A DNA stretch of 64,000 bases, taken from positions 1,544 to 65,543 of the forward strand of contig DAOUFY010000005.1 of the NCBI GenBank assembly GCA_034429745.1, given 5' to 3'. Origin of the DNA: Anaerolineales bacterium (GTDB lineage Bacteria > Chloroflexota > Anaerolineae > Anaerolineales > DRKV01). The translations under genes and the position numbers were made by a program. Shown piece after piece: positions 1,474-41,645 of the stretch (the stretch's first letter is position 1; each line of letters begins with the position of its first letter). The notes under the pieces were generated by a model. It ran no database searches and was not told the DNA's origin. It saw nothing but the letters and a program-made list of their open reading frames with translations.

Positions 1474-2448
1474 TCATTCTCGTTTTGAATTAACATCAAT
1501 TAAGACAACAATTAATAAAATAATACCCTTTACCACCCATTGCCAATACGTATTAATACTCATAAGAACCATCATATTGCTAATAACCTGAAGAAAAAGA
1601 GCTGCAATTACTACTCCTATAACACTACCTCTTCCCCCTGAAAGCGAAGTTCCTCCTAAAACAACTATCGTCATAATGTCAAACAACAGATTTTCACCCA
1701 ACATTACATTTCCAGACAAGGTTCTTGAGGTTAGGCCCAGAGCACCAATTGCAGTCAATACTGCACAAAGCACAAACGCAAAAATACCGACAAAATCTAC
1801 ATTAATTCCTGACAATCTGCTAGCTTCAATATTTCCTCCAACTGCATAAAAAGATCTTCCTAAAGACGTATGTTGGGTAACAATATATAGCACAAAAGAA
1901 ATTATTGTCATTAATACAATAGGGAAAGGAATAACTCCAAGATAGCCTGCACCAAGAAAATTGAATGATTCAGGGAGTCCAGGAATAGGCAATCCTCCCG
2001 AATAAATAAAATATATCCCTTTTATTATTGTCATCGTAACCAAAGTCCCGATAAAGGCTGGCATTTTTCCATAAACAACGAGAATTCCATTAAAAAATCC
2101 AACGACTATCGCCATCAACATAACCAAAGCGATAGCTACCCATACGGGATACCCTAAAGTAACCGCAAAACCTGCAAAGAATATTGAAACCATACCAATA
2201 ATAGCTGAAATTGACATATCCATTCCACCAGTTAACACTACAAAAAATTGCCCTAGTGAAATGATGGCGATAAAAGATGCTTGACGCAATACATTCAATA
2301 TATTGGCTGGAGTTCTAAAAGTAGCATTTGTAGCCATAAATATGATCACTATTCCTATAAAAAGAAGCAACAACATCCATTCTTGTAAAAAAGCTTTACC
2401 ACTAATAAAACGTCTTGTCTTGATTATGAAATCGTCATTCTGTTGCAT
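1474..2448 (-). CDS. Sugar ABC transporter permease (RbsC-like)
   Basis: Multi-TM protein; [22 protein letters not shown] and [14 protein letters not shown] motifs. Confidence 0.95.
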
Positions 2449-3952
2449 TTTTATTCACTCCCAATAAACTATGAATGATAACATCTTGGGTTTTTCTCTC
2501 ACCCTCAACTACATCCATAATAGCTCCTTCAAACATTATATATACTCTATTACACAAGCCAATCAGCTCCTCAAGTTCTGGCGAGACTAGCACAACTGCT
2601 TTACCTTGCTTAGTTAATTCATTAATCAATTTATAAATTTCAAATTTAGCCCCAACATCAATGCCACGTGTTGGTTCATCCATGAGCAATATATCAGAAT
2701 TCCTCAACATCCACTTCGCAATCACAATTTTTTGCTGATTTCCTCCAGATAGCTTTTTAACACTTTGCCATAGAGAATGATAATTTAAATTCATTCTTTT
2801 GTTGACTTCATATGCTGCTTTTGACTCCTCTTTATGGTCTTGAAATAATTTCCATTTTTTAAATCGAGACATCGACGGTAGTACCGTATTGTCCTTTATA
2901 TCAAATAACATATTTAAACCAAGTGTTCTGCGCTCATCTGGAATAAAACCAAGACCTAATTTCACCGCTTGCTGAGGGCTCCTTATTGCTACTTCCTTCC
3001 CCTTAATAAAAATTTTCCCTCTAGTGACCTTTTGATTTCCAAATATGGCATGGAGGAGTTCTGTTTTATAAGCACCTACTAATCCCGCAATACCGACAAC
3101 TTCACCTCTTCTTACTTTTATATTGATATCTCGAAATGTATTTTGCCCAGTCAGTCCCTGAACTTCTAATAGTACTTCACCGAAATTTTGGTTTATTGGT
3201 AAATATACTTGCTTTAATTCGCGGCCAATGATCATTTTAATAAGTTGTGGTTTATCAATATCTTTTACATAACCACTATTAATATGCCTGCCATCACATA
3301 GTACTGTATATGTATCGCAACAATCGATCACTTCATCCAATCTATGCGAAATGTATATAATGCCCATTCCCCTTTCTTTAAGTATTTTGATAATACGAAA
3401 TATATTTTCTATATCTTTCTCCTGAAGGACTGCTGTTAGTTCATCAAGTATCAAAACCTTGGATTCATTAAGTACTGCCTTTGCAAGCTGAATAATTTGC
3501 CGCTCTGCCGTTCTCAATTGCTTTACAGGCACATTAAGATTCACATCGCACTGCAAAAAGTTCATGAGTTCATGAACTCTTTTCCGCATAGCTTTCCAAT
3601 CTATAAACGGACCTTTGGTTAAGTATTTACCTATGAAAATATTTTCCAATCCTGTCATATCGCTCATCAAATGAAATTCTTGGTGAACAATGGCTACACC
3701 ACGTGCTTGTATTTCCTTTATTGCATTAGAACTATACTTTATTAGTTCTCCATTTATGTATAACTCACCGCTCGTCATTTGATATTCACCAGTAATGCAC
3801 TTGACTAAAGTTGATTTTCCTGCGCCGTTTTCTCCTACTAATCCATGGCATTCACCTGGAAGCAGGGTAAAATTCACTTTGTTAAGTGCTTTTACTCCAG
3901 GAAATTCCATAATGCAATCTTTTACCTCAACCAAAGGTCGCTCTTCATCCAT
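2435..3952 (-). CDS. Sugar ABC transporter ATP-binding protein (RbsA-like, two NBDs)
   Basis: Walker [18 protein letters not shown] signature, [13 protein letters not shown]. Start set to ATG 3952 (GAGG upstream); the track starts at TTG 3970. Confidence 0.95.
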
Positions 3953-4011
3953 CTTAATCCTCTTATACAATTATCTTTTCATCACTCATTATCTCTTTGA
4001 TGATCATACTT

Positions 4012-6117
4012 CTATAACCACAACCAACCTAAAGCTTCAATCCCCGAGCAAATAACTGCATTATCAGGAGCTTCTGGATGGCGAATATTGTGAATTAATC
4101 TTTTCATTTCATGATAAGGATACATACAACTTTTTACACCCGTTTGTGATACTGGATTTATGTCAAAAAACATTTCTTTAACAATATCAAAATCTTTTTC
4201 GTTATACCATAATATTTCATCTAATATTTCATCCTTCTTAATAGGATCTGTTTCCTCTTCATAACGAAGAGCAGCTAAAACAAGGTCATATATAATCGCG
4301 TTACGGCGTTCAGCATTGTGCCATTTGTTAAAATGGGGTAACCATACACGTAATTTTTCATCGTTATAAGAAATTTCCCTCAATTCATTAATCATCTCCA
4401 TAAGATGAGGATGGTTTTGCTTTGCTGCAATTATTGCTGGTATATCTTCTTTTGTCATTTTATTCTTTTGAAATGGGAATGGCGTTGTATAAAGTGGTAT
4501 TTGACTTTCATGAATTGTTACTATATTCTTCATCACATAAAGTATTTTGTCAGTCAACTCAGCACCAAAGTTCAATTCGCACGCTCTTTTATAGAATTCC
4601 TCCATATCCATCATTGAGCCCCATCCATAATTACCATGAGCGAATAAGTGCATAAAATAACCATACCACTCAAACATAAAGCCATTAATTCCATGTACCC
4701 CCATCTTAACACTACCAATATGCTGCTCGATATCTCTCTCAATGACTTGCGCATTCGCCTCATCTTTATAACGGATTACATTTGACTCAAATATTCTAAA
4801 CAGTCTTCCCATAGTAGAAGTAATTGCATTAGATTCTGTATCTCTTGCCCATATTCTATGCTTACCAAATGCTTCACACCATTTAGGAAATTCCGTCTCA
4901 GGTACATACAAACCAGGAGCCCAAAATAAATTAATATCTTCCGGCATCGACTCTACACACTCCCGTAAAAAGGCTGGATCCTTCTCTAAAGGAGGCTGAC
5001 GGAAGGCTCGAATACCTAACACTATTTTGGGGTTTACCTTGCGAACTGCCTCAGTAATTTGATTCAACAACCATATATTAGCTTTATGTTTTGCTTCACC
5101 GGGTGTATTTGCTATTGCATGCCATCGTTTCTTACATTCATCGCATTCACAATACCAAAAACCTTCTTCGCTTTCTTCCAAGGTATAACCATCAAACCCA
5201 AGTTCTGCAATATGTACCATACTATCAAGAATATATTGAACAGTACCGGGATAACTTAAACATAGCGAGTCAAAATCATTTAAGAAAGAACTGGAAGGTG
5301 GTGGTTTCATCCGGGCTTCTGGGTGGGCAATAGTATATCCGCCATTATAGGAATTTAACCCAACATAAGCAAATATTTTTACTTCTAATTTGTGTGCATA
5401 CTCAATAAATTTATCCAGGTATGGTTCCTCAAGATTTGGATGGGTATAACGTACAGTTAACCAGCGAGAGTTCTCAGCATTCCATATTTTGATGGGTATA
5501 TTTCTAAACACTGTTTCTGGGTATTTTTCAAATTCAAAAGGCCAATACCCATACATCACCATATTAAATTGGTTTATTTTATTATCAAGACTTATGTTTA
5601 AAAATTCCACCCATTCGTCATAACCCCAAAGTTGGCTATCAAATCCAATTCTTCCATAACCTGCATACCAAGAAAAAGTTGGTGCTACAGCGCGTACCGG
5701 CAATGAAGGCCAATCAACAATCTCACAACATGGCAACCTATATCCCTCGCCATCTTTTCTTAATAGTTGCTTAATACTGGTAATACCGTTAATAAACCCT
5801 GCTCGGCTTTCATACTTTAAAAGAATTTTATTCTCTGAAATCAAGAGATAATATCCTTGCGATTTAAACAACGCCTCATTATCCGCTTTTATACCGTCAA
5901 GTTCTTTAACAATTTCAATGTTGATATCGTCAGCTTTGTTATTATTTCTAGTGTGAAAATTTATCTCCTTATAATTCCAGAATCTTATTTTCATTATCTC
6001 CAATAAGGAATCAACCTCGGAAACGCCTACTACTTGAGTAATACAAATATTTTTAAATATTTTTGTATATACACCGATATCACGAACTATTTTTGGCTCT
6101 GGTATTAAATTAATCAT
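4012..6117 (-). CDS. Putative glycoside hydrolase: GH20-type N-terminal domain plus divergent TIM-barrel domain
   Basis: LIPEPK start; GYYLLI...G..NGITSIKQLL...EIVDWP...R matches GH20 domain 2. The downstream domain has a CECDEC motif but no canonical GGDE motif. Confidence 0.7.
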   Translation of the reverse strand: MINLIPEPKIVRDIGVYTKIFKNICITQVVGVSEVDSLLEIMKIRFWNYKEINFHTRNNNKADDINIEIVKELDGIKADNEALFKSQGYYLLISENKILLKYESRAGFINGITSIKQLLRKDGEGYRLPCCEIVDWPSLPVRAVAPTFSWYAGYGRIGFDSQLWGYDEWVEFLNISLDNKINQFNMVMYGYWPFEFEKYPETVFRNIPIKIWNAENSRWLTVRYTHPNLEEPYLDKFIEYAHKLEVKIFAYVGLNSYNGGYTIAHPEARMKPPPSSSFLNDFDSLCLSYPGTVQYILDSMVHIAELGFDGYTLEESEEGFWYCECDECKKRWHAIANTPGEAKHKANIWLLNQITEAVRKVNPKIVLGIRAFRQPPLEKDPAFLRECVESMPEDINLFWAPGLYVPETEFPKWCEAFGKHRIWARDTESNAITSTMGRLFRIFESNVIRYKDEANAQVIERDIEQHIGSVKMGVHGINGFMFEWYGYFMHLFAHGNYGWGSMMDMEEFYKRACELNFGAELTDKILYVMKNIVTIHESQIPLYTTPFPFQKNKMTKEDIPAIIAAKQNHPHLMEMINELREISYNDEKLRVWLPHFNKWHNAERRNAIIYDLVLAALRYEEETDPIKKDEILDEILWYNEKDFDIVKEMFFDINPVSQTGVKSCMYPYHEMKRLIHNIRHPEAPDNAVICSGIEALGWLWL

Positions 6118-6147
6118 TTCTCCCTCCCAAATTTCACGCTGATTCCT

Positions 6148-6176
6148 CCGGGCGAAATGACTTTCATTTCGCCCGG
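6148..6176. other. Perfect 13-bp stem-loop between the binding-protein gene and the GH gene
   Basis: CCGGGCGAAATGA-ctt-TCATTTCGCCCGG; no U-tract follows on the transcribed (minus) strand. Confidence 0.8.
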
Positions 6177-6228
6177 GTTAGTTAAGAATTCAAAATATTA
6201 AATCGGTTTCTTCTCACCTGCTATTTAA

Positions 6229-7314
6229 TTAGAGCCAAGTCCAGCTCTTCCAATCAAATTCTGCAATATTGGCTGGTGTAATTGCTACCGGTTGAGGCAA
6301 CTCATATATTAAGGGCACTTTCTGACCCAAGACAAGCACTTTATACATTGCATCAGTAGCTTGATAACCAAGCACTACTGGATCCTGTAAAACCTCACCT
6401 ATCCAAGCCGGATTCCCTTTATCAATGTAGGTCAATACCTCTTTCGATCCTGCGATGCCGATGAATTTTATTTCAGTTCTATTAGCAGCAACAGCAGCGT
6501 TATAAGCACCAATCACTTCAGCATCATTATGTCCCGATACTACATCAATAACTGGTTCTCTCTGTAGAACATTTTCAACTAGACTCTGAGCAGAATCCGC
6601 GCTGCCAGCACCAATGTCACCTTCCACAATAATTCGCGCCTTAGGAAAAGCAGCCAATACAGTTTCAGAAAATCCATCTACCCTATCTTGAGATACCTTG
6701 CCAGAAGTTGGACGGGAAACAAACAGAGCCACAGGATCTTCCTTATTCAATGTTTTCAAATACTCGACAGCAACTTCTCCAGCTTTTACGCCCAGTGCTT
6801 TCATATCGTGCCCAACGAAGGTTGACCATACGATGTCTTCATCACTAGATGGTTGCTGAGCATAATCACCAATAACAAACGGAATGCCTTGTTTTACATA
6901 TTGCTTCATTACTGGTATTGCCGAGTTTGGATCAGCAGGGAAAAGGATAATCCCTTTCGCACCCCATGTAACCAGATTGTCAATGTTATTTAACATTGTT
7001 TGAACATCTGATCGAGAATCTTCGAATTGGAATACAAAATTTGCTTCTGGATGATCCTTTACATATTTCTCACAACCTTCTTTGGCTCCAAGAAACCATG
7101 TATAAGCTGTCATTTCCATAATCGAGACACCAATTTTAATTGGTTCCTCTGCTTTCGGTTGTTCAGCAGCAGGTGCCGCTTCCTTTGCTTTCGGTTGTTC
7201 AGCAGCTGGTGCCGCTTCCTCTGCTTTCGGCTGTTCAGCAGCTGGCTGACATGCAGTAAATAACATGCTAGCCAACACCAAAATTGTCACTAATAACAAT
7301 AATTTTTTAAACAT
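6229..7314 (-). CDS. Sugar ABC substrate-binding lipoprotein (RbsB-like)
   Basis: Signal peptide with lipobox-like FTAC, Ala/Pro/Glu linker, type I PBP motifs (IGVS, GHND, FIGIAG, LQDP..LG). Confidence 0.9.
   Translation of the reverse strand: MFKKLLLLVTILVLASMLFTACQPAAEQPKAEEAAPAAEQPKAKEAAPAAEQPKAEEPIKIGVSIMEMTAYTWFLGAKEGCEKYVKDHPEANFVFQFEDSRSDVQTMLNNIDNLVTWGAKGIILFPADPNSAIPVMKQYVKQGIPFVIGDYAQQPSSDEDIVWSTFVGHDMKALGVKAGEVAVEYLKTLNKEDPVALFVSRPTSGKVSQDRVDGFSETVLAAFPKARIIVEGDIGAGSADSAQSLVENVLQREPVIDVVSGHNDAEVIGAYNAAVAANRTEIKFIGIAGSKEVLTYIDKGNPAWIGEVLQDPVVLGYQATDAMYKVLVLGQKVPLIYELPQPVAITPANIAEFDWKSWTWL
7144..7245 (-). repeat. 36-bp coding tandem repeat (about 2.8 copies; AAPAAEQPKAEE)
   Basis: Units start at 7144, 7180 and 7216. 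Confidence 0.95.
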
Positions 7315-7431
7315 CCTTTATCTCCTTAATTCACTCAAATCTTTTTATCTCATTCAATCGTTTATAAATTTATTTTTCTTAATTCTATTTGCTAACTTAT
7401 TCTCCTACTTCAACCTCCTTTCCATTAATAA

Positions 7432-8478
7432 TTATTTTTTTTGTTTGTCATAGTAACCGCAAGATTCTCTTATAATCAATTCCATTGGCAGCTTAACCAC
7501 CTGAACAGGATTCGTATTGCCACTAGCCATTCTATTAAGTAACAAACTTGCCGATACTCGCCCTAATTCATACCATGAAGTACTTGTTGTAGTAAGTGCT
7601 GGATTTAATAAATCTCCATTTTCGACATCATCGAAAGACACTAAAGCAATCTCTTGCGGCACTTTAATCTTCAAAGCTTTTAAAACCGTCAAAGCTCCGA
7701 TACTCATTGAGTTATTAAAACCGAAAATAGCTGTTGGCCTTTTTTTCATTTCAAGTAATTTTTCTGTTGCAGATACACCACTTGGTTTTGTCCAATCACC
7801 AACTAGGACTAATTTATCGTCATAAAAAATACCGTGATCTTTCAATGCAGCTATATATCCATCTAACCGTTCTTTTGAACTGCTTTCATTTAGTGGGCCA
7901 GTTATAACAGCAATGTTTTCATGACCTAAATCGATCAAGTGAGATGTGAGTTTATATGCGCCTAGATAGTTATCTGAGGTTACAAAATCAATTTCCAAGT
8001 CTCCAAGTTTGTTATCTATTGCAACAATAATAATTTTTCTTTTTTCAAGTATATTTCGAATATGATCAATGATTAATTCTGATGCTGATGAGGCAATAAT
8101 AATGCCCTCCATTTGACGTGCAATAAATAAATCAAGCGCTTTTTTCTCCCATTCCGGTTTTCCTTCGGTGTTATAAAAAAGTAATTCATATTCCGAATAT
8201 TCCGAATTCTTTATGTAATTATAGGCAGCTTTGATTGCATTACTAAAAAAGGGGTTGGATATATCAGGTAAAATAAAACCGATCGTATATGTTCGTCCAT
8301 ATTTTAGACGACGAGCAGAAGCACTTGGATGATAACCAATTTTTTCTATCATAGCTAACACACGTTTGCGTGTTTCCAAGGCCACATCAGGATGGTTATT
8401 GATTACCCGAGATACAGTCTGAACAGACACTTTTGCTGCTTGCGCTACTTCTTTGATAGTAGGATTCTTAGTAATCAT
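7432..8478 (-). CDS. LacI family transcriptional regulator
   Basis: N-terminal HTH TIKEVAQAAKVSVQTVSRVIN plus PBP-like effector domain. Start set to ATG 8478 because the track's upstream extension is translated operator repeat. Confidence 0.95.
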   Translation of the reverse strand: MITKNPTIKEVAQAAKVSVQTVSRVINNHPDVALETRKRVLAMIEKIGYHPSASARRLKYGRTYTIGFILPDISNPFFSNAIKAAYNYIKNSEYSEYELLFYNTEGKPEWEKKALDLFIARQMEGIIIASSASELIIDHIRNILEKRKIIIVAIDNKLGDLEIDFVTSDNYLGAYKLTSHLIDLGHENIAVITGPLNESSSKERLDGYIAALKDHGIFYDDKLVLVGDWTKPSGVSATEKLLEMKKRPTAIFGFNNSMSIGALTVLKALKIKVPQEIALVSFDDVENGDLLNPALTTTSTSWYELGRVSASLLLNRMASGNTNPVQVVKLPMELIIRESCGYYDKQKK

Positions 8479-8488
8479 ATTTCTTGAT

Positions 8489-8524
8489 GTTATCGTTCCC
8501 GTTATCGTTCCCGTTATCGTTATC
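8489..8524. promoter_or_regulatory. Three tandem LacI-type operator-like 12-mers
   Basis: GTTATCGTTCCC GTTATCGTTCCC GTTATCGTTATC; each fits GNNANCGNTNNC with a central CG. Confidence 0.7.
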
Positions 8525-8553
8525 ATTATATAACAATACAAACATCATGTCAA
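8525..8553 (-). promoter_or_regulatory. Consensus sigma70 promoter for the lacI/sugar operon
   Basis: Minus strand: TTGACA (8553-8548), 17-bp spacer, TATAAT (8530-8525). Confidence 0.9.
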
Positions 8554-8868: not shown

Positions 8869-10749
8869 ATGTCATCAGAACAAATCATACCCGACACTTA
8901 TACCTTAGATATAGAGCCCATTGGACGTAGAATCATCAATACTCGTGAGGATACACTTTTAAACGCTGCTCAAATCGCCGGCTTAGAACTCACAGCTTTA
9001 TGCGGAGGCGAAGGGTGGTGTGGCAAATGTCGCATTAAGATAATTTCAGGGCAAGTTACACCCTATACAACCGATGAACTCACTGCGTTATCCGCGACTG
9101 ACATAGCCCATGGCATTCGCCTTGCTTGTCAAGTCAAACCTCTCTCGGATGTTGTGCTTGAAATATTGCCCGAAACATTAACCACATCTCAAAGACTTCA
9201 GTTGGAAGGCTCCAATCTGTTAGAACGCCCCTCAAATTCATTAACCTCAGCTTTTGACATAACTTTAACCCCACCATCACTTACAGATTTAACTGCAGAT
9301 TCAACCCGTATAATAAATGCTCTGCAACAACATGGCATTAACACCCCAGTTATAGATTTGCCTCTTTTACAGCATCTCTCCGATCAGCTTCGTCAATTAA
9401 ACTGGAATATTCGTATTATTACTCACAACAATCGCATCGCAGGGATATTTCCTCCGCGAACGAAGCCCTTAGGTTTAGCTATAGATTTTGGCAGTACAAA
9501 GATTGCTGCCTATCTTGTTGATTTAGAACAATGTCAAATTCTTGCTAAGCAAGGTGCAGTCAACCCACAAGTCGCTTACGGCGAAGATGTGGTAAGCCGC
9601 ATCGCTTACGCTAACCAAAATCCGCAGGGAAGAAAAGTTCTACAAGAGATTCTGGTTGAAAAAATCAACGAGTTGATAGCGGAATTGTGCCAAAAAACTT
9701 CCACATCAACCGATCAAATCATCGCAGCAGTTGCTGTTGGAAATACCGTTATTCATCATCTATTTCTAGGTCTTCCTTTACAGCAGCTTGGTGAAGCCCC
9801 TTATATTCCTACAATAAGTACCGCTGTGGAATTCCCAGCTCGCGAATTAAACCTTAACATTGCACTCAATGGCAGCCTCTATATGCCACCAAATATTGCT
9901 GCTTATGTTGGAGCTGATCACGTCGCTATGCTATTGGCTGCAAATATTTTAAATCAATCAAGAAAAACTATTATCGCTTTGGATATTGGCACAAACACAG
10001 AAATTAGCTTATATAGCCCCCATAAACCAAGCAAAAAAGAAAATTTAGCAGATCGAAAAATCACCGGCAGCTTATACAGTTGTTCATGTGCCTCGGGCCC
10101 AGCCTTTGAGGGTGCTCACATCCATGATGGTATGCGCGCTATTCCAGGTGCTATTGAACACGTTCAATTCCGCGACGGCAAGTTATATATGCATACCATT
10201 GACAACAAACCTCCCCTTGGTATCTGCGGTTCAGGTATTTTAGACGCAGTATCCGAGTTGTACCGCCTTGGTATTGTTGATTCGTCAGGAAGATTAAAAA
10301 AAGATGCCGCTTCAGTCCGATCTTCAAAGGGAGGAGGAGAATATATCTTAGTACCCGCCGACCAAAGCGGAAGCAAACGTGATATTCTCGTTACACGCCG
10401 TGATATTAACGAAATACAGCTAGCTAAAGGCGCCATTCGAGCTGGTATCGAAGTACTCCTTCATGATGTTGGGCTTACTTGGCATGAAATTGACGAAATT
10501 ATTATTGCGGGGGCTTTCGGCACTTATCTGGATATTGATAGTGCAGTGAGAATCGGCATGTTTCCATCCCTTCCTAAAGATAAATTTGTCCAGATCGGCA
10601 ATGCAGCCGGCATGGGTGCCATTCGCTTGCTACTTTCACAGCAAGCCCGCCAAGAAGCGGAAATTATTGCCCAAGCTTCAGAATATATTGAACTCACAAT
10701 TCACCCATCTTTCCGCGATATTTATCTCAATGCGCTAAATTTCGAGTAA
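8869..10749 (+). CDS. ASKHA-domain protein with N-terminal 2Fe-2S ferredoxin (RACo/DUF4445, reductive activator of corrinoid proteins)
   Basis: CGGEGWCGKC...RLACQ cluster motif; IDFGSTK, YGEDVVSRI, DIGTNTEI, CASGPAFEG, GICGSG, IAGAFG and GNAAG ASKHA motifs. Confidence 0.9.
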   Translation: MSSEQIIPDTYTLDIEPIGRRIINTREDTLLNAAQIAGLELTALCGGEGWCGKCRIKIISGQVTPYTTDELTALSATDIAHGIRLACQVKPLSDVVLEILPETLTTSQRLQLEGSNLLERPSNSLTSAFDITLTPPSLTDLTADSTRIINALQQHGINTPVIDLPLLQHLSDQLRQLNWNIRIITHNNRIAGIFPPRTKPLGLAIDFGSTKIAAYLVDLEQCQILAKQGAVNPQVAYGEDVVSRIAYANQNPQGRKVLQEILVEKINELIAELCQKTSTSTDQIIAAVAVGNTVIHHLFLGLPLQQLGEAPYIPTISTAVEFPARELNLNIALNGSLYMPPNIAAYVGADHVAMLLAANILNQSRKTIIALDIGTNTEISLYSPHKPSKKENLADRKITGSLYSCSCASGPAFEGAHIHDGMRAIPGAIEHVQFRDGKLYMHTIDNKPPLGICGSGILDAVSELYRLGIVDSSGRLKKDAASVRSSKGGGEYILVPADQSGSKRDILVTRRDINEIQLAKGAIRAGIEVLLHDVGLTWHEIDEIIIAGAFGTYLDIDSAVRIGMFPSLPKDKFVQIGNAAGMGAIRLLLSQQARQEAEIIAQASEYIELTIHPSFRDIYLNALNFE

Positions 10750-25383: not shown

Positions 25384-25421
25384 ACGCCAATTCTCCTTCT
25401 ACGTTCATTTGCATAATAGCA

Positions 25422-25454
25422 CACCTGCCCTCAACATTCTGTAAAGGGCAGGTG
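25422..25454. promoter_or_regulatory. 10-bp inverted repeat upstream of flgC (operator or terminator candidate)
   Basis: CACCTGCCCT-N13-AGGGCAGGTG next to a minus-strand TGcTATTAT extended -10 candidate. Confidence 0.45.
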
Positions 25455-25493
25455 AACGCTAGATAAAAAATTTGTTAAACGAAAGAAAAAGCA

Positions 25494-28313
25494 TTATGTT
25501 TTGAATTGACGCACCATATTCTGCAAGGAGGCAGCATTCATCATTAACTGCTCAGCCGCTTTATTTACTTGCTCCACCTGAAGTTTAAACGTTTCCGTCG
25601 AAGATAACACCTCTTCAACCATTGCAGCATTCTCTGCACTAACTTGTGCAACGCTTACTGCCGACTCTTTTACTACGGCAGAACTAGCCAGCATCTCCTC
25701 AGTAGCGGCTGTGTTTTCTTCTACCACTGCACTAACATCAGATATTTTTTCTCCTACTTCATGGCTCAGCTCAACAATCGTATTGGTAATCATCTGATGG
25801 TTTTCTGCAATTTGACTTAACGATATAATCAGCTGCTGCAGCTGTTCACTCAATTGTTGCATCTCATCAGCGGCTTGACTGTTGCGTTGTGATATCTGGC
25901 TAGCTTTACTCGTGGAAAGCAGTAAGTTTTCTTGTTCTTTATACACATTTTGGAGTGCATTCATCACCCCCTTGACCTGCGCTTCAGTTTGAGAAGCATT
26001 GTGAGCAATTCTTTCAAATGAACCGCGGGTTTGTTCAGTACTCTCTACTGCCCTGACCACATCTTCGTTTGTTGCCTGCATGGTCTTCACAGCCTCTTGG
26101 GTATCTTGCTGTACAGCTTGGACAATTTGAGCAATTTCCTTTGTTGCCAAGGCAGATTTCTCTGCCAGTTTACGGACTTCTTCTGCAACCACGGTAAAAC
26201 CACGCCCTTGTTCACCCGCTCGAGCCGCCTCAATAGCTGCATTTAATGCTAATAAATTCGTTTGCGAAGCTATATCTTCAATTGTACTGATAATAGATCC
26301 GATCTGCACTGAGCGTACACCTAGTTCAGCTATTCGTTTAGAAAGTGCATCCGAAGTATATTTCACTCGTTCAATCCCTTGTGCTGTCTGATCTAAATTA
26401 GCTGAACCTTCCTGAACTTCCATTGCGGTATTTGCAATTCCAAGTTGAACTTGTTCTGCCACATCATTCACATAGTGAAGAGTTTCATCCAGCTTCTTGC
26501 CGGCATTTAAAGCTTGCTCCAAACCTAATACTTGCTCCTCTGCCCCAAGACGGATACCTTCAACAGCTTTTGCGAGCAGTCCAATCGCTTCCAAACTTTT
26601 CAAAGCCATATCGCCTTGATTCTTTGCACCAGCATGGATTTCCTTAGCCACTGAATCAAGACGCTGCATTTCTTCCAGGACCTGAGTAAGCATCAGCGCC
26701 TGATTTTGGGCTCCTTGCGCAACACCTTCAATTGCTTTCGTAAGCTGATTGATCGACTCAGTAGTTGCGTTCAGATTTTCATTCTGTTGAATGGTTCCTT
26801 GGGTAATGCTCTCCATAGAACTAACGACTTGATTGATTCCATTTTTGGAACTTTGAACCACCTCTGTCAATTGTTCACCTAATTGAACCAATTCTTGAGC
26901 TTGCACACCAAGCGATTTGATGAGGAGTCTAAGGTTGCTGACCTCCCTATTGTAGGTCGAAATCACTATGCCGGCTTTTCTGCAGCGATTTAATGGTGCA
27001 ATAAAACTGCTATCATCAACTCCAATTGCTGCTGCATCATAACGCTCTTCAATCAACTTTTGGGCAATATGTTCAATTTCTTCCCCAGACTTCATAATTA
27101 TCCAATCTACTTTGCAATTCTTGGAGCGTAATTTTTCAGCTGCAGCTTTCACGCCTGCTTGAAACTGCTCATCGAACTTAATCGGTCTGCCAATAATTGC
27201 TATCTTCAGCGGCTTTGAGGGAAGCACATCCACCGGTATTGCTCTACGTTTTGCCATCTCTTCCGTTTCCAATAACCCTTTTTGTGGGTGCCAATAGCGT
27301 GTGTAATTCTCCTGCGTTACTACGTCAATTGTCGTATAAATAAACTGCGAAGGTGGTTTCCAACCGCTGACTAAATGATTATATAAATAGATTACTGAAT
27401 CATGGCCTTGAGCGTAGGGATCCTGAGACAATACCGCACTGATAACACCTTGGCTGACATATTGCATGGTTTCATCCATTAAGTCATAACCGATAATCTT
27501 CACTTCTCTTGCCTTTTTCATTTCTGACACTACTCGCCCAACCACAGGCGTGCCCGTAGAATCAGTAATATAAAAAGCGGCTAAATCAGGAACTTTATTC
27601 AGCCACTCTCTTACCAACAACTCCGCTTGTTTAGTATCAAAAAAATGCTCTGCTCTTCCAACAATGGATATTTGAGGATATTTATCTCTTAAAACCTGTT
27701 CAAACCCTTTTTCTCTTAATTCTAAGGCGCGTTGATTAAAAAATGCAGTCAAGATGACTACTTTTCCTCTGCCGCCCAATATTTTCCCCATCGTTTCACC
27801 GCAAACCATACCTTCTTGAAAAGATTCAGAACCAATATAAAATAAACGTTCTAGGGGTTCTACGGTCAAGACATTTAACTCTTTAGCAGCTTCATTTACT
27901 TTTTCACCTAATTGTTGGATCGTTGCTGCTAATGTTTTTAAGCGGGAAAGCGGCTTTAGATCAACAGAAGTTGTTCCAACTTCAATTGTTGAGGTAAAAT
28001 CCCCCATCGTTAAGTGAACGAGTGCCTGGATAACGTGTGAAATACCCTGATCTGCAATGCTTCTAGCTATATTATTTAAAAGATTCTCGGAAATATGGAT
28101 TTTTCGCTCATTGAGAAAAATAAACCAGATGCATAAAAGCATGCTGCCCATAGCGCCTAGAAACATCCACGACACACCATTTTTTAAAGAAAACCAGCTT
28201 AATAAAGGCTCATTTTGTGCGAGACGGACGGTACCTACGAGAAAAAACAGTAATGCAATGAAAAAAACAATAAGCGAAAAAGAAAACGGCAAATTTTTCG
28301 AATTTGTTTTCAT
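25494..28313 (-). CDS. Methyl-accepting chemotaxis protein with cytoplasmic circularly permuted type I sugar-binding domain
   Basis: Two N-terminal TMs, HAMP-like segment, PBP-like insert, canonical tip [38 protein letters not shown]. Confidence 0.93.
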
Positions 28314-35364: not shown

Positions 35365-37875
35365 ATGAGCCAATCTGTTGATATTTCACTTATTCCGATC
35401 GCATTTAGGCCAAGCCAGCTTGAGCAAGAACTCAATGCCCTTTTTATTGCCTATCCTCCGCGTTACACAGCCCGCAGCAGAGATGCCGATCGACTCATCT
35501 TTTACTTGCCCAACATCGCGCACCTTCCAATCACACGTGATAGCCTTGAAAAAACCCTTCATCATATCCAAAGTACTTATTATAAAACCAAAGGTGCAGT
35601 TACTAGCGCGATGCGCCTTACTCTTGAAGAGTTGAACCTGCATTTCCTACGCCAAAACGATCTCGCTTTGCAGAAACAATCAACACCCGAAACAGAAGCA
35701 AAAAGCGTGGGTATTCCAATAACTTTTTCTGTCCTGCGCCTTGCCCAAAATACTCCTCCAGCGCTTTTCATTGCCCAATGTGGTCATAGTCAAATTGTAC
35801 ACATCAGCTCAAAAACTGTCCAACGCATCTATGACCCCCAACGAAGCGGTCAAGGGCTAGGCGTAAGCCGTTCGCTCTCCATTCACTTCCTTCAAATTCC
35901 GGCCCAAGCAGACGATTATCTCTTATGGATACCCTCACTGACTATCCCATGGAAAGCACCCATCCTACAAGCTATTCATGGACTCGCTTTAGAAAAAGCG
36001 CATCATCATTTTTTAGATAAAAATAATTATGACCATCTTAGTGCAAATAACAGAGCTATTTTACTACAAATTCAGCAAGGCAAGGGTGAAATCCACATTA
36101 TCAAGCCCCATAAAAGTCAAGTCATCTCTAAAGAATCGACTGTACCCGCCAAACCAGTGGAAATAAATACTGAACCTGTTAAACCTCGTGATGGATATAT
36201 TACACCCACACCTAAAGAAGAAGCTCCTGAAGTCCAGTCTGAAATTGTCATTTCGCAAGAAGCGGAAAGTCGTTCAACACAAAGATCACTCCCCATAAGT
36301 GATACAACCATATCTTCACCGAACCAGGAAAGTCCTCAACCGGCTCAGATACCTCCCCTTGATTCTGAAAGCCCAACAGCCAAACCCCAACCTTCAGGTG
36401 AGAAAGAACCTTCAAAAGTTGATACTGTTCCAGACACCGCCTCACCTACTCCTCAAATTAAGCGTGAGGCTGTTAGCGCAGATGAGAATAAGCCATCTGA
36501 TACCTCAACAATCAATATACCTAAACCACAGAGTCCGCCGCAACAGCAGCGAGCCAATATTTTCCAAAGGCTTTCCTTTTTATCATTGCCGCAGCCAATA
36601 CAACGCTTGTGGAAAAATTTTTTGCTTCTTCTTTACCGAAAACATAAAACTCAACCGAAAAGAGAAGAAGCACCTTCATTCCAACTTCCCTCCAGTGTTA
36701 TGGTTGCCATTGCTGTCCTGGTGCCAATTGTGGTAGTCGCTATTACTAGCATGGTTTATTTACAGCGAGGCATTTCGTCACTCAATGAGGAATATTACCT
36801 TAAAGCTCAATCCATTGCTGTCAAAGCTATTAGTGAAAAAGATCCTCAGCGAAAACGGCGCACTATTCAAGAAAGCCTAGCCTTGCTGGATAAAGCAGAA
36901 AGCTATACCATCACCGAAAAATCAAGCGCCTTGCGCGATTACTTAGAAGCTCTTACGGATGAAATTGATGGCATTATCCGCTTAGATTTTCAGCCTGTTT
37001 TATCTGGCAGGTTGCCACCTAATGTAGATATTAAGAAGATTCTATTAATCGGTGATGATTTATACCTCTACAACGCTACACAAGGGAACGTATTGCGAGC
37101 TGAGCGCACCGCTCAAGGTTTTGCTATTGATCCAAATTTTTACTGCGGTCCAGGCTCCAATGTTGGACCATTAATTGACGTATCACCGCTAACATGGAAT
37201 GGAGATATCAAAGCAGCTTTAGTAGGCATGGATAAATCTGGTCAATTGCTTTATTGCGGCGGTGAAAAGCCGCTATATCACACGCTTATACCTCCTGACA
37301 AGGGATGGGGAGAACCTAAAATTATCGTTGCCGAATATAGCCGTTTATACATTTTGGATACAAAAACGAATGCAATATGGGTTTATTCATCCAAAGAAGA
37401 GAATGACTTTAGTGAAAAACCTTTCTTCCTCTTCTCCACCAAAGCTCCCAATATTCAAGATGTACTATCTATGACAGTATATCGCGGCGATATTTACTTG
37501 CTCCATAAGGACGGCCACTTGACAAAATGCATCTACAATTTTTGGTATCAATCCTCTACCCGTTGTGAAGATCAAGCGGCTTATACAAATGCTCGTTCTG
37601 ATAGCTCTTTTTATAAAATAAAACGTCCGGATGGCAGTTATGCACAGTTAAGCCAAATTATTTACGCACCACCGCCTGATCCATCAATTTACCTGCTAGA
37701 TAGTGAAACGTTATCCATATATCATCTTAGCTTGAGGCTTACCATTCAACAAGAATACCGCGCTCAAAAAGAGCTTTCTAGGAATAAGCGCCCTGCAAGT
37801 GCTTTTTATGTTGGTTCTAACCGAGTGGTTTTTCTTGCTATTGGGAACAATGTATATTTCGCCTCATTGCCTTAA
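35365..37875 (+). CDS. Membrane protein: PP2C-like N-terminal domain lacking catalytic Asp residues, P/S/E/T linker, TM, C-terminal probable beta-propeller
   Basis: LFIAQCGHS resembles PP2C lyiAhvGDS; GLG...DDYLLW resembles ALG...gDxLLLCSDG; TM at VMVAIAVLVPIVVVAITSMVYL; YILD/IWVY strand repeats. Confidence 0.55.
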   Translation: MSQSVDISLIPIAFRPSQLEQELNALFIAYPPRYTARSRDADRLIFYLPNIAHLPITRDSLEKTLHHIQSTYYKTKGAVTSAMRLTLEELNLHFLRQNDLALQKQSTPETEAKSVGIPITFSVLRLAQNTPPALFIAQCGHSQIVHISSKTVQRIYDPQRSGQGLGVSRSLSIHFLQIPAQADDYLLWIPSLTIPWKAPILQAIHGLALEKAHHHFLDKNNYDHLSANNRAILLQIQQGKGEIHIIKPHKSQVISKESTVPAKPVEINTEPVKPRDGYITPTPKEEAPEVQSEIVISQEAESRSTQRSLPISDTTISSPNQESPQPAQIPPLDSESPTAKPQPSGEKEPSKVDTVPDTASPTPQIKREAVSADENKPSDTSTINIPKPQSPPQQQRANIFQRLSFLSLPQPIQRLWKNFLLLLYRKHKTQPKREEAPSFQLPSSVMVAIAVLVPIVVVAITSMVYLQRGISSLNEEYYLKAQSIAVKAISEKDPQRKRRTIQESLALLDKAESYTITEKSSALRDYLEALTDEIDGIIRLDFQPVLSGRLPPNVDIKKILLIGDDLYLYNATQGNVLRAERTAQGFAIDPNFYCGPGSNVGPLIDVSPLTWNGDIKAALVGMDKSGQLLYCGGEKPLYHTLIPPDKGWGEPKIIVAEYSRLYILDTKTNAIWVYSSKEENDFSEKPFFLFSTKAPNIQDVLSMTVYRGDIYLLHKDGHLTKCIYNFWYQSSTRCEDQAAYTNARSDSSFYKIKRPDGSYAQLSQIIYAPPPDPSIYLLDSETLSIYHLSLRLTIQQEYRAQKELSRNKRPASAFYVGSNRVVFLAIGNNVYFASLP

Positions 37876-39407
37876 CGCTCTCCTTTTGGCAATGAAATTT
37901 CTTGATGATGATGCAATACATAATAAAGGACCAAAGCTGCACACAACACTGCACAACCTTGCACCACATACATTTGAGGTGACATCCAAGGTCCGTAGTT
38001 CATCATATATGCATCCGCAAATCCTTCTTGTATTGCAACATTGATGCGATACCATACCTTAGAGAACAAAAAGGAAATAACAAAGAACAACTGCACAAAA
38101 GCCGGCTTCAATTCTATCGAGTCCAATGCTTTTATAGTAAATATCACAAAGAAAGGAAAGGCTGCCGTAAGGAAACGCGACTCCGAAGAAAGACTTAAGA
38201 TCATATTCCCGACAAAGAATAAGGTTAGGCCAATAGGAAAGCGCTGAATTTGTTTAACAATATCTTTCCAGAAAAATACCGTTAATAATACAAGGGGTCC
38301 AAAATATACAATATGAGAAACCAAAAATACTGCCGGGGCTCCAATAGCTTTATAGACTGCATTTCTTACAAACAAGCGCATATACACATACTCGGCTGAG
38401 TCTAATCCATAGGTGTTAATAACCGCATTCACCCCCCAAAAGACAGCGATAGAGATCGGCAGATTAACTGAAATAAGAGAAATAATATGGTCTTTTATTT
38501 GATATAGCGAGGGAAAATTTAATAACGAACGCAATACTAGCCACAAATATACACAAGCGATCAATATGCTTAAATAAATTACCGATTTGTCTAAAATCCA
38601 CCATTTATCCTCTAATCCCCTACCAAAACCTTCTCGCAAGGTCTGCAATAGCCATACAACAGCTATTCCGGTAAGTACAACATCTAGCCGCAGATGCGAA
38701 AAAAGGAAAGGTTTTTCCCTCTCAGGTGTTGGTTTTGAAAAAAGAAACAAAACGATGCCATAATAAATCATCGTTTGCCATGTAAAAGAGCCCACAATTA
38801 CTGTAATCCAAAAACCTAACCATTGGCGTTTTAAATAAAAATATAATAATAGGACACCTAGAACAAAAGCCGTCTGATCAGTAAATACTGGTCTGTAAAA
38901 ATATAACTTTAGTACAAAAACATTAACAAAAAGCCCAATATAAGCAGCCCACCTCCCAAGAGGTGAGAGTTTCATCTCTTCAGTTATTTTTTGCCATATT
39001 ACTACAGCTAAAATAAGCAGGGCAAGGTTATAAGCCCGAAATCCATTGATAATATCTCTATCGGAAGGTTTAGCAATGCCTAAAATTTGAAAAGAATAAT
39101 GTAGAACAAAGCTCGGAACCGCACGTTGCACATAATACTTTAGCACTTGATGTGAACCTATGCGTTCAGGAAAGTTGAGTACCAATTCCTTGAACTCTGC
39201 TCCTTCTTCATAGCCAAAACCATTTCCCTCGAGAATAATTTCGCCGTAAAAAATTAAATTAAACCCGCCTAGTATAAGTAGGGTTATTAAAAAGATGAAA
39301 AGTGGGGATCGGATTAACGCCCTTCCTTTTTCAACCCCCTGCCTAAAATATAATTTACTTCTGGCAAAAAACGGCGAGGAAGGCAAGGTTGGATCAGCAT
39401 TTGACAT
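37872..39407 (-). CDS. Polytopic membrane protein, possible GT-C-fold glycosyltransferase
   Basis: More than 10 hydrophobic segments with an N-terminal loop carrying acidic/aromatic residues and SESRF in a late loop; family not certain. Confidence 0.4.
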   Translation of the reverse strand: MSNADPTLPSSPFFARSKLYFRQGVEKGRALIRSPLFIFLITLLILGGFNLIFYGEIILEGNGFGYEEGAEFKELVLNFPERIGSHQVLKYYVQRAVPSFVLHYSFQILGIAKPSDRDIINGFRAYNLALLILAVVIWQKITEEMKLSPLGRWAAYIGLFVNVFVLKLYFYRPVFTDQTAFVLGVLLLYFYLKRQWLGFWITVIVGSFTWQTMIYYGIVLFLFSKPTPEREKPFLFSHLRLDVVLTGIAVVWLLQTLREGFGRGLEDKWWILDKSVIYLSILIACVYLWLVLRSLLNFPSLYQIKDHIISLISVNLPISIAVFWGVNAVINTYGLDSAEYVYMRLFVRNAVYKAIGAPAVFLVSHIVYFGPLVLLTVFFWKDIVKQIQRFPIGLTLFFVGNMILSLSSESRFLTAAFPFFVIFTIKALDSIELKPAFVQLFFVISFLFSKVWYRINVAIQEGFADAYMMNYGPWMSPQMYVVQGCAVLCAALVLYYVLHHHQEISLPKGER

Positions 39408-39443: not shown

Positions 39444-41645
39444 TTATTTTTTTACTAGAGGGCGTGATACAACGCTGCGCCTAAACGGACCTTGGGTATT
39501 GAGACACGTAACCCGAAAACCTGCAGAACCAACATGTAGGATATCCCCTGGTTGAAGCCGGGTTCCTTGAACTGGAATTGGTGAATAATTTACCCATGTG
39601 CCAGCTTTTGACCCTAAATCTGTAACCCAAAAGCTTACCCCATCCTCCATACGGACTAGACGAGTATGCATAGCTTCAACAGAAGGCTCTTCTAAAACTA
39701 AGGTTGCATGCTTAGGGCTGCTTCCGATAATCACATCTTTTCCTAGTAAGGTAAATGGCTTTGAGTCTTCCACTGACAGAGTTTTTCCAGGAATGTCAAA
39801 AAGCCGTACTAGGAATACTGGCGAACTATTTGATTTTTCTTTCGTTTGCCAAGGTAGGTGAAACTGCCTGATTGCACTACCTATGGCAGATTCTTCTTTT
39901 GTCTTAGATGAAGCAGCAGCTTTTTCAGCCTTTGGATATAATTTCTCATCCAACTCAATAGATGTCAATTTCGGCTTTGTTATAGGCTCTGTCTTGATCA
40001 CTACCGGCTGAGTCACTGGATCTAAATATTTATGGCGGCGAATATTTTTCTTCGTCTCAATAAAAATGGTTCGCGGATGGATCCTGCCAGCCAACACTAA
40101 AGCCCATAATAAGATCACTGCTGCCATCATAAGTGAGAAAGCTGCAATTAGTTTTCCATATCGCGACAAGAGAGACCCAACATCCTGCTTGGGCACAAAA
40201 ATTTTGATCCAGATCGGAGTCTCAATGCTAACATTGCTCAGCTCAAGCTGATCGACAACCTCAACCTGTAGAATATGCTGCCCATTGCTTTGATAAGGGG
40301 TTAAGTCCCAAACAAATGTATCAAATGGAGGAGCTGTATTTTCCGCTACAATTTGTCCATCAACATATAACGTAGAGCGAGTTAGGGAACGTTTGAAACC
40401 ATCTGGAAAATCTACCAAAACTTTCAGCTCTACTGATTGGGGAGAAAATTTACGAGAAGTCTGCACCTCACTGCCAAGTATGTCGCTTTCTCCCTCCGTC
40501 TGCTCTACCGTACGTATGATTTCAGAGGGTGGAGAAACAAACATTGGCTGAGGTGGTACGATGTTGAGAATAAATGAATGCGGAGAACTGGAATACACCT
40601 TATTATTAAGGCTGAGCTGCAACGTAAGTTGATGTGCTCCGCTCGTCCGTATTCGTGAATCATATGATATTCGATAAGTATGCCTCAGTGGCTCAAGGTA
40701 TTCATCCAAATTGGGCACCGGCTCCGTGCCCGAAAACATGAATATCTTTCCGCCGGTTTGATCAGCTAAATGGGCTAATTGTGTCGCAGCAGAGCTCGTA
40801 AAGTAGCCGGGCGAAGCTACCATCCAAACAAAAATATGCACCCGTTGTTCTTTTGCTCGGGCAATAATGTTCTCGAATGTCGTCTTACCTTCCTCATTTT
40901 GTGCTTGACCTTCTTTAGGAACAATAGAAAGAGGTGAGGTGATGAACAATATAGCTCTGCCCATTCCGGGGTGCGGAGTTTGATCAACAGCTACCTCTAG
41001 TGCCTTAGTCAATACTTCAATACCCTTGCCTGAAGAAATCTTGTTGGCAAAAGCCTCTGTCTTAAAGGCAGTCAACCACTCAGCATAACTGCTTAAGTGA
41101 GTTTTTTCTACCCCCCCTACAGTAATTAAACTCAGATCATCGCTCCCAGAAGATATTGTATTTTCTTCTCGAGATGAGAGTTGATCAGGGTTATTTCCCG
41201 ATTGTTCAGCTAAGGTTTGCGCCCAGGTTTCAATTGAGCGTGCTAATGCATCATACCGCGGTGTTCCTTTTGAGTCGCGCAAAGCAAACATTTCATCCGA
41301 ATTTATCGCCATAACAAATTGAACACCAGGCTTTACACGGCTCACCTCAACCTGTTGCATAGGTTTTTCATCTTCCAGAACGAGCAGGTTCTGAGAAGAC
41401 AATTCTTCACCGTCATTCATTGAAATACCATTTAAGGAAAAATATGCTTGTATTTTGGGAAATTTGCTTATATCCGTTAATATTAAATCAAGAGGTGAAT
41501 CTTCTGCTATTTGTGCTACACCCACTGAAGATAATCCAATGCCTTCAGCTTGTGCCTGACCTAGAAACAGGCAATTCACCAATAGGATAAACAAAATCAG
41601 AGCTGCAATGGTTTTCCGTCGTCTTTTACTCACGTTGTTAAGCAT
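39444..41645 (-). CDS. Signal peptide-VWA-Ig-like-TM-FHA domain protein
   Basis: AQA signal cleavage site, VWA-like region (AILFITS, IFVWMV), Ig-like TLYVDG...WDLT...NG.H.L, TM, C-terminal FHA (DLGS..GTWVN...L.PGDILHVG). Confidence 0.8.
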   Translation of the reverse strand: MLNNVSKRRRKTIAALILFILLVNCLFLGQAQAEGIGLSSVGVAQIAEDSPLDLILTDISKFPKIQAYFSLNGISMNDGEELSSQNLLVLEDEKPMQQVEVSRVKPGVQFVMAINSDEMFALRDSKGTPRYDALARSIETWAQTLAEQSGNNPDQLSSREENTISSGSDDLSLITVGGVEKTHLSSYAEWLTAFKTEAFANKISSGKGIEVLTKALEVAVDQTPHPGMGRAILFITSPLSIVPKEGQAQNEEGKTTFENIIARAKEQRVHIFVWMVASPGYFTSSAATQLAHLADQTGGKIFMFSGTEPVPNLDEYLEPLRHTYRISYDSRIRTSGAHQLTLQLSLNNKVYSSSPHSFILNIVPPQPMFVSPPSEIIRTVEQTEGESDILGSEVQTSRKFSPQSVELKVLVDFPDGFKRSLTRSTLYVDGQIVAENTAPPFDTFVWDLTPYQSNGQHILQVEVVDQLELSNVSIETPIWIKIFVPKQDVGSLLSRYGKLIAAFSLMMAAVILLWALVLAGRIHPRTIFIETKKNIRRHKYLDPVTQPVVIKTEPITKPKLTSIELDEKLYPKAEKAAASSKTKEESAIGSAIRQFHLPWQTKEKSNSSPVFLVRLFDIPGKTLSVEDSKPFTLLGKDVIIGSSPKHATLVLEEPSVEAMHTRLVRMEDGVSFWVTDLGSKAGTWVNYSPIPVQGTRLQPGDILHVGSAGFRVTCLNTQGPFRRSVVSRPLVKK

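Follow-up and report, generated by a model that had tools for sequence, protein, structure and literature searches.

The stretch of DNA analysed here (the window; 64,000 nucleotides from an Anaerolineales bacterium, GenBank assembly GCA_034429745.1, contig DAOUFY010000005.1) encodes a chemoreceptor of 939 amino acids (aa), on the minus strand at window positions 25494..28313, whose chain carries a circularly permuted sugar-binding protein between its membrane anchor and its signalling hairpin. We read it as a membrane-anchored chemoreceptor without an extracellular sensor, in which an in-line, cytoplasmic and permuted periplasmic binding protein (PBP) domain would sense a small ligand and modulate the kinase CheA; the probability of this reading is put at roughly 0.6. 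What is established here is how the chain is built, where it was permuted, that the domain lies in the cytoplasm, that the core of its pocket is conserved and that the module serves other outputs as well. An earlier note, made from the sequence of the window, had drawn attention to positions 26945..27860, which are aa 152–457 of the open reading frame (ORF).

Two pieces of the insert, scanned separately, match the Pfam family Peripla_BP_4 (PF13407), aa 155–314 covering profile positions 94–254 and aa 378–462 covering positions 10–95. The C-terminal two-thirds of the sugar-binding protein precede its N-terminal third in the receptor, so the canonical strand order of such proteins is absent. Once the pieces are swapped, they give one continuous Peripla_BP_4 match (profile 10–254 of 258) of 123.9 bits, against 104.2 bits in the native order, and the swapped construct aligns end to end with the glucose-binding protein of T. 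maritima (2h3h/2qvc; E ~3e-22). The earlier note had proposed a permuted RbsB-type protein, and both the order of the Pfam pieces and the swap bear this out. Because of these E-values, and because the same order recurs in 117 independent cluster representatives, a chance origin of the permuted match is excluded.

The first piece comprises strand 5 of the N-lobe, the whole of the C-lobe, the return strand and the C-terminal strands (approximately RbsB 97–271). The second comprises N-lobe strands 1–4 (RbsB 1–91), its final residues being the pocket residues N455 and R456. The linker of aa 346–368 connects the old C-terminus to the old N-terminus and must make a fourth connection between the lobes, as in the permuted protein TpMglB-2 considered below. 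AlphaFold2 (AF2), run on the native order of aa 75–503 with a nine-sequence alignment, models the domain with predicted local distance difference test (pLDDT) values of 85–97 and a predicted template modelling (pTM) score of 0.73. The elements follow in the order RbsB strands E to L, linker, strands A to D and a long helix. In a full-length model, also made, a 9-residue coil leads into the binding domain (aa 159–454), and a 6-residue coil leads out of it before a helix beginning at aa 461. The best Foldseek matches are sugar-binding proteins (2h3h, 3g1w, 3c6q and AraP 6sw4); as Foldseek aligns in sequence order, good superpositions span just ~185–200 columns at 2–3 Å, which is expected for a permutant. 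Both pieces are confidently modelled as parts of one PBP fold in the native order, on model confidence rather than superposition, in line with the earlier claim.

The break point was located by aligning re-ordered family members with E. coli RbsB, the sequence used being identical to that of 2DRI. The new C-terminus falls directly after N455-R456, which correspond to RbsB D89-R90, where N-lobe strand 4 ends, and the new N-terminus is the strand matching ‘SHIAS’ of RbsB. This is the position, between the equivalents of ‘ITLDR’ and ‘SHIASD’, that the earlier note had given. In MglB/RbsB-type proteins the latter strand is strand 5 of the N-lobe sheet, of order 2-1-3-4-5-6 (PMC4990184). The first crossover comes after strand 5, and the cut lies ~6 residues before it. 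The permutation cut is the loop between N-lobe strands 4 and 5 and not the hinge proper, so both connections to the rest of the receptor lie on the N-lobe beside the cleft. As the earlier note had stated, the new termini join the HAMP output to the signalling bundle, but the break is not in the hinge itself. Both junctions are marked by motifs conserved in the family, ‘T.EPC.RL.YVG.D’ at the entry and ‘T.N.EP.SLR.L’ at the exit.

Ahead of the domain, hydropathy and AF2 agree on two transmembrane helices (TMs) joined by a loop of 9–20 aa, compared with the ~17 aa first estimated, and there is no extracellular sensor. The second TM continues as one helix (aa 43–102 in the AF2 model) into the first amphipathic segment (AS1) of what the earlier note had called a HAMP-like segment. 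The Pfam HAMP model matches neither this segment (E≤10) nor nine family members (E≤0.1). A profile built from 35 family linkers does match HAMP domains of solved structure (9trk, 2e-9; 9trj, 4e-4; Aer2 3vol, 0.06; NarQ, 0.2), the alignments spanning AS1, connector and AS2 with a connector 7 residues longer than usual, and AF2 gives a helix-loop-helix. The segment is a divergent HAMP.

Behind the domain comes the signalling hairpin of a methyl-accepting chemotaxis protein (MCP), with a PF00015 match at aa 660–800 (E=1.6e-37; 129.4 bits against a cut-off of 34.6). Its N-arm has 239 aa and its C-arm 237 aa, ~34 heptads each, on either side of a tip near aa 700; by homology the tip would be the region that binds CheA and CheW, and candidate methylation motifs lie at aa 861–905. 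When the arms are counted from the domain exit, N-arm and C-arm are of equal length throughout the family (median difference 2 aa), mostly with ~22/22 or 26/26 heptads. Because of this equality, the bundle starts exactly at the PBP exit, with the domain at its top and no second HAMP. Of the 72 family members compared, the window protein is alone in having ~34 heptads per arm, ~22 or 26 being the number in most; the longest described MCP length class is, to our knowledge, 64H, and this bundle may be unusually long. The helix breaks in the AF2 hairpin are mirror-symmetric (aa 566–570 and 833–839).

No hydrophobic segment follows the second TM of the window protein. Two TMs precede the domain in 69 of the 108 full-length relatives, with a median loop of 11 aa beyond the hydropathy windows, and 101 of the 108 have no hydrophobic window after the domain; 17 have no detectable TM at all. 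Since the domain is contiguous with the MCP domain, with no TM between them, the predicted topology makes it cytoplasmic, as had been claimed. A secreted PBP would have a signal peptide or lipobox and lie outside the cytoplasm; here the domain follows two TMs and a HAMP.

Where the earlier note had described a singular oddity, the insert belongs to a large family of single origin, whose outputs also include kinase, GGDEF, phosphatase and AraC domains. A word-indexed search returned ten full-length relatives, and an exhaustive profile search of 1.84 billion representatives gave 533 matches at E≤1e-30. Architecture was analysed in 171 sequences, taken as cluster representatives at 50% identity. 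The order C-part, N-part, MCP tip is found in 117 of them, a lower bound for the family, and the order C-N in a further 24, mostly fragments; the remainder are conventional N-C secreted proteins (13), sequences with a C-part only (12; mostly short and likely fragments), a C-part plus tip (3) or a tandem arrangement (2). The split architecture, which the earlier note had thought worth seeking in other MCPs, also turned up at 240 loci in a scan of one genome per species, the best match to the window protein having 40% identity. By their record labels, the best 80 of these 240 loci comprise 21 Chloroflexota (mostly Anaerolineae), 20 labelled Bacteroidota, 12 Ignavibacteriota, 9 Acidobacteriota, 2 KSB1, 2 Kryptoniota, 1 Fibrobacterota and 13 unclassified. 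The Ignavibacteriota include Melioribacter and the cultured Rosettibacter primus 4148-Me, whose copy is intact (L077 7731..10259). Three loci (L037 5301-10085, L050 5312-10094 and L080 7668-12448) each carry two adjacent paralogous genes for permuted-PBP chemoreceptors.

The same TM-TM-HAMP-permuted-PBP unit precedes HisKA-HATPase-REC-AraC in P0071, GGDEF in P0097, a SpoIIE/PP2C phosphatase in P0070 and an AraC DNA-binding domain in P0076, these being outputs of kinds typically driven by a dimeric helix. In the chemoreceptor P0055, the permuted-PBP unit follows a MASE11-PAS unit, the MASE11 there having six TMs. Output swapping of this sort is the behaviour of a genuine sensor module. A tree was made from the shared C-part of 136 permuted and 11 non-permuted sequences (subsampled neighbour-joining with a split test). 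A single split parts all the permuted from the non-permuted sequences (30/30 bootstrap), and the nearest neighbour of the histidine kinase member is a chemoreceptor. Because the permuted sequences form one clade and the kinase nests beside a chemoreceptor, the tree speaks for a single permutation, after which outputs were exchanged.

The nearest conventional relatives (P0013–P0017, ~40% identity) are secreted lipoproteins, and the receptor linker (‘…[17 protein letters not shown]’) contains a recognisable counterpart of the extension at their N-terminus (‘…[18 protein letters not shown]’). Two secreted binding proteins of this parent subfamily, P0005 (L081 1-1479) and P0053 (L082 4299-5702), are in-frame tandem duplicates. 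Both sequences are cut at the N-terminus, and their genes sit in sugar ABC-transporter operons beside a DUF4380 gene; neither protein has a second signal peptide, and the second copies are 91% identical to each other. The linker between the copies shares with the receptor linker the motif G-[LIV]-[LIV]-E, absent from single-copy proteins, which is suggestive but no proof. The duplicates demonstrate the likely route, permutation by duplication, within the parent subfamily. As direct ancestors they were rejected, being a recent lineage with 62% identity to single-copy proteins against 36% to the permuted family. Most likely, the family arose once from a secreted ABC-transporter binding protein via tandem duplication and then loss of both ends. 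To the wider proposition we give about even odds: that this is an unrecognised, widespread sensor class of single origin, in which the sugar-binding protein of an ABC importer was duplicated and trimmed into a permutant, was spliced in between a HAMP and whatever output a helix drives (MCP, histidine kinase, GGDEF, PP2C or AraC), and would now read intracellular imported sugar in saccharolytic anaerobes.

For the pocket, 99 complete members of the permuted family were compared with RbsB, using a list of ribose contacts that we take to be those of 2DRI. By alignment, F380, R456, R200, F225, D277 and Q297 of the window protein are equivalent to RbsB F15, R90, R141, F164, D215 and Q235, so all six contacts named in the earlier note are reproduced, although R456 and F225 are peculiar to the window protein and are not conserved in the family. 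Across the 99 members, the R141 site is invariably R (99/99), the D215 site is D in 96 and the Q235 site Q in 82; the F15 site is F or Y in 88, the F16 site W, F or Y in 93 and the D89 site N in 83. Because the core residues are 83–100% conserved, against a mean family identity of ~36%, ligand binding is probably retained in the family. The window protein keeps F380, N455, R200, D277 and Q297 and has an Asp (D381) at the RbsB F16 site; for this member, ligand binding is somewhat less certain than for the family. The site of RbsB N190 (D251 in the window protein) is Asp or Glu in 67 of the 99 permuted members and Ala in the secreted relatives. This hints at a different ligand and possibly at a switch of specificity made when the domain became cytoplasmic.

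The chain would run from HAMP AS2 into strand 5, through the C-lobe, back by the return strand, along the linker to strands 1–4 and on into the signalling helix. The input helix stops ~9 residues before strand 5, and the output helix begins ~5 residues past the pocket residue N455. The cleft would bind a small molecule of the cytoplasm, most probably a sugar or a derivative of one. As both helices join the domain close to the pocket and the first crossover, closure of the cleft should re-position the N-lobe with respect to both, moving the N-lobe and the start of the signalling helix relative to the HAMP and to the partner subunit. In LacI/PurR dimers, inducer binding re-orients the N-subdomains and so shifts the attached DNA-binding heads. 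By this analogy, the ligand would change the distance between the two signalling helices, or their rotation, at the upper end of the bundle, the altered helix packing would change the activity of CheA, and ligand-driven closure would in this way couple swimming to the internal sugar status of the cell. The upstream HAMP may add membrane or other inputs.

Several points weigh against this scheme. At three pocket positions the window protein differs from the family consensus, namely I378 (S, N or T in its relatives), D381 (W or F) and R456; it may bind another ligand, or bind less strongly. The neighbourhoods of 80 loci hold no hint of a ligand: even the commonest partner occurs at ~20% of the loci at most, no neighbouring gene is conserved across the family, and the genes that recur encode unrelated response regulators and kinases, an aldo-keto reductase at 11 loci and an FGGY sugar kinase at 6. 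No che genes lie within the window. The structure models behind the scheme are of monomers. Finally, the surviving tandem duplicates, as a recent lineage, illustrate the route and not the ancestor.

The alternative that survives best, though we consider it unlikely, is that the domain is an integrator and not the primary sensor. Input would arrive via the membrane hairpin and HAMP, or via MASE11-PAS, and the permuted PBP would tune or gate it as a coincidence detector of metabolic state. The in-line position means that any upstream signal must pass the permuted PBP; a HAMP is kept upstream despite the missing extracellular sensor, and P0055 has MASE11 and PAS ahead of the module. Most members, however, have no more than a two-TM hairpin, its loop ~11 aa long, without any recognisable sensor upstream, and 17 of 108 have no detectable TM. 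This alternative is in any case compatible with direct sensing of a cytoplasmic ligand.

The three pocket deviations of the window protein, among them an Asp in place of the second aromatic, and the lack of a conserved neighbouring gene would suit a scaffold that has lost small-molecule binding and acts as a spacer for dimerisation or as the place where another protein docks, e.g. a transporter or a component like those of the phosphotransferase system (PTS). We regard this as improbable, since the strength of pocket-core conservation in 99 members of such low mean identity is hard to explain without a ligand, and LacI-type cytoplasmic PBP cores do bind small molecules. The PBP domains described so far in receptors are extracytoplasmic (PMC8050422; BT1754, PDB 2x7x), but an ordinary periplasmic ligand-binding domain with mis-predicted topology is effectively refuted by its position after two TMs and a HAMP and by the lack, in the window protein and 101 of 108 relatives, of a hydrophobic segment before the necessarily cytoplasmic MCP domain. 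An assembly chimera, gene-fusion artefact or decaying pseudogene, for which only a single split metagenome copy could be cited, is refuted by recurrence, an identical intact 939-aa protein being present on 9 contigs of independent metagenome assemblies and the architecture, with its conserved junctions, recurring at the 240 genome loci and in the 117 cluster representatives.

The split copy (P0001; L085 3001-5818) comes from another metagenome and is broken into ORFs of 310 aa and 622 aa. The adjoining genes on its contig are fragmented too, and the split is for this reason probably a sequencing error rather than a sign of a pseudogene.

Table 1. Features of the receptor gene and of the sugar-uptake operon, in window coordinates
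Feature	Position	Strand	Evidence or context
Whole gene, TM-TM-HAMP-permuted PBP-MCP hairpin	25494..28313 (including stop codon)	-	ORF list; Pfam PF13407 and PF00015
TM helix 1, aa ~8-29	28227..28292	-	Kyte-Doolittle peak 2.73 from aa 8; AF2 helix 10-33
TM helix 2, aa ~49-67	28113..28169	-	Kyte-Doolittle peak 2.06 from aa 49; AF2 helix 43-102
Divergent HAMP, aa ~88-148	27870..28052	-	Family profile against PDB; AF2 helix-loop(103-119)-helix(120-149)
Permuted PBP, first piece, aa 155-345	27279..27851	-	Pfam; RbsB alignment; AF2 pLDDT 85-97
Internal linker, aa 346-368 (about 25 aa), starting at invariant G346	27210..27278	-	Alignments; AF2 coil and short helix
Permuted PBP, second piece, aa 369-457	26943..27209	-	Pfam; RbsB alignment; AF2
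MCP signalling hairpin, aa 460-939	25497..26936	-	PF00015; arm lengths; AF2 helices 461-698 and 700-938
Conserved hairpin tip, aa ~680-720, ‘[23 protein letters not shown]’	26154..26276	-	Alignment; Pfam
LacI regulator	7432..8541	-	Sugar-uptake operon
Conventional Peripla_BP_4 binding protein	6229..7314	-	Sugar-uptake operon
GH20b-like protein	4012..6117	-	Sugar-uptake operon
Double ABC ATPase	2435..3970	-	Sugar-uptake operon
Permease	1474..2448	-	Sugar-uptake operon

On the same strand, 110 nucleotides downstream of the receptor gene, begins the series flgC-fliE-fliF-fliG-fliH-fliI-fliJ; an SLT-domain gene comes next, and after it fliK. This neighbourhood fits a role in motility control. Rod operons of flagella usually open with flgB-flgC. 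The gap between the receptor stop codon and flgC (25384..25493) holds no ORF of the size of flgB (≥80 aa), and the receptor gene occupies the position where flgB would be expected.

Elsewhere in the window, positions 1474..8541 (minus strand) form a sugar-uptake operon (Table 1). Its conventional binding protein was considered as a parent of the insert or a clue to its ligand and was rejected, with 21–23% identity to the receptor insert and its parent subfamily. The gene at 8869..10749 (plus strand) codes for a reductive activator of corrinoid proteins, of RACo type; its presence suggests that the host is an anaerobe using corrinoid-dependent methyl transfer. Two ORFs without a Pfam match, of 836 aa (35365..37875, plus strand) and 511 aa (37872..39407, minus strand), adjoin a gene (39444..41645) whose 733-aa product carries an FHA domain at its C-terminus. 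An Rfam scan of the window gave no matches.

The module adds an abundant sensor to those used in bacterial signal transduction, spread over at least six phyla and mostly in uncultured lineages that degrade polysaccharides. It is also a natural experiment in protein engineering, in which permutation made a clamshell insertable into a helical signalling wire, the principle on which synthetic PBP switches and biosensors are designed. Designers of new biosensors and chimeric receptors could take as a guide the place of the cut, in the strand 4/5 loop and five residues away from a ligand contact. The family further offers an instance of permutation through duplication, with in-frame tandem duplicates surviving in the same subfamily. 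If the proposed mechanism is true, the receptor would provide a direct route for metabolism-dependent taxis, sugar being sensed after uptake instead of outside the cell, and would be nature's counterpart of the engineered PBP domain-insertion switch.

A full-text literature search, with subscription-only journals outside its reach, met no earlier description of a permuted or cytoplasmic fused PBP sensor. Accounts of solute-binding proteins in signalling and of chemoreceptor ligand-binding domains (PMC8050422; PMC8547431) do not mention a permuted or a cytoplasmic fused PBP sensor. Neither Pfam nor NCBIfam has a model for the permuted module, which Pfam displays as two Peripla_BP_4 fragments.

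The only natural permuted type I PBP met in that search is TpMglB-2 (Tp0684), a ‘Type Ic’ circularly permuted glucose-binding lipoprotein (PMC4990184; PDB 5jx2, 6bgc). Like the receptor domain, it is a type I sugar-binding protein in which the first strands of the N-lobe have moved to the C-terminus and a fourth connection links the lobes. It is among the Foldseek structural matches, at 12% identity, so the two belong to different subfamilies. TpMglB-2 begins at strand 4 (N19, equivalent to MglB N91), whereas the receptor keeps strand 4 (N455) at the C-terminal end, the cut being one strand later. TpMglB-2 is moreover a free, secreted lipoprotein of an ABC transporter, whereas the receptor domain is cytoplasmic and embedded in a signalling protein.

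The position of the domain recalls Aer2 (PDB 3vol), in which a PAS sensor lies between HAMP domains in the cytoplasmic stalk. Both have an in-line cytoplasmic sensor after a HAMP and before the kinase-control bundle, and the family HAMP profile weakly matches that of Aer2. They differ in that the receptor sensor is a permuted PBP of ~300 aa and not a PAS, and in that no HAMP intervenes between sensor and bundle. The termini of a PAS are naturally adjacent; the attachment points of the receptor PBP both lie in the N-lobe thanks to permutation alone.

As a built-in sugar sensor of type I PBP fold, the domain resembles the LacI/GalR regulators and BT1754 (PDB 2x7x). LacI-type cores are likewise cytoplasmic and signal through the N-subdomain, the site of both receptor connections, and the HK-REC-AraC output (HK, histidine kinase) of P0071 is the same as that of BT1754, a hybrid two-component sensor of Bacteroides. 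In LacI, however, the PBP is at the end of the chain, and in BT1754 it is periplasmic, between two TMs; both have the conventional strand order, whereas the receptor PBP is permuted, cytoplasmic and internal. A looser parallel, of mechanism only, is with the S1-S2 domain of ionotropic glutamate receptors, a type II PBP interrupted by the channel, and with the artificial insertion switches engineered from PBPs; in these too the closure of a clamshell is read through connections near the cleft or hinge and not through the native termini. In indirect chemotaxis mediated by solute-binding proteins, RbsB and MglB dock on Trg, a separate periplasmic protein thus acting indirectly on the outer domain of the receptor (PMC8050422). 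There, as here, the Peripla_BP_4 family informs a chemoreceptor, but in the receptor described here the binding protein is fused, permuted and intracellular.

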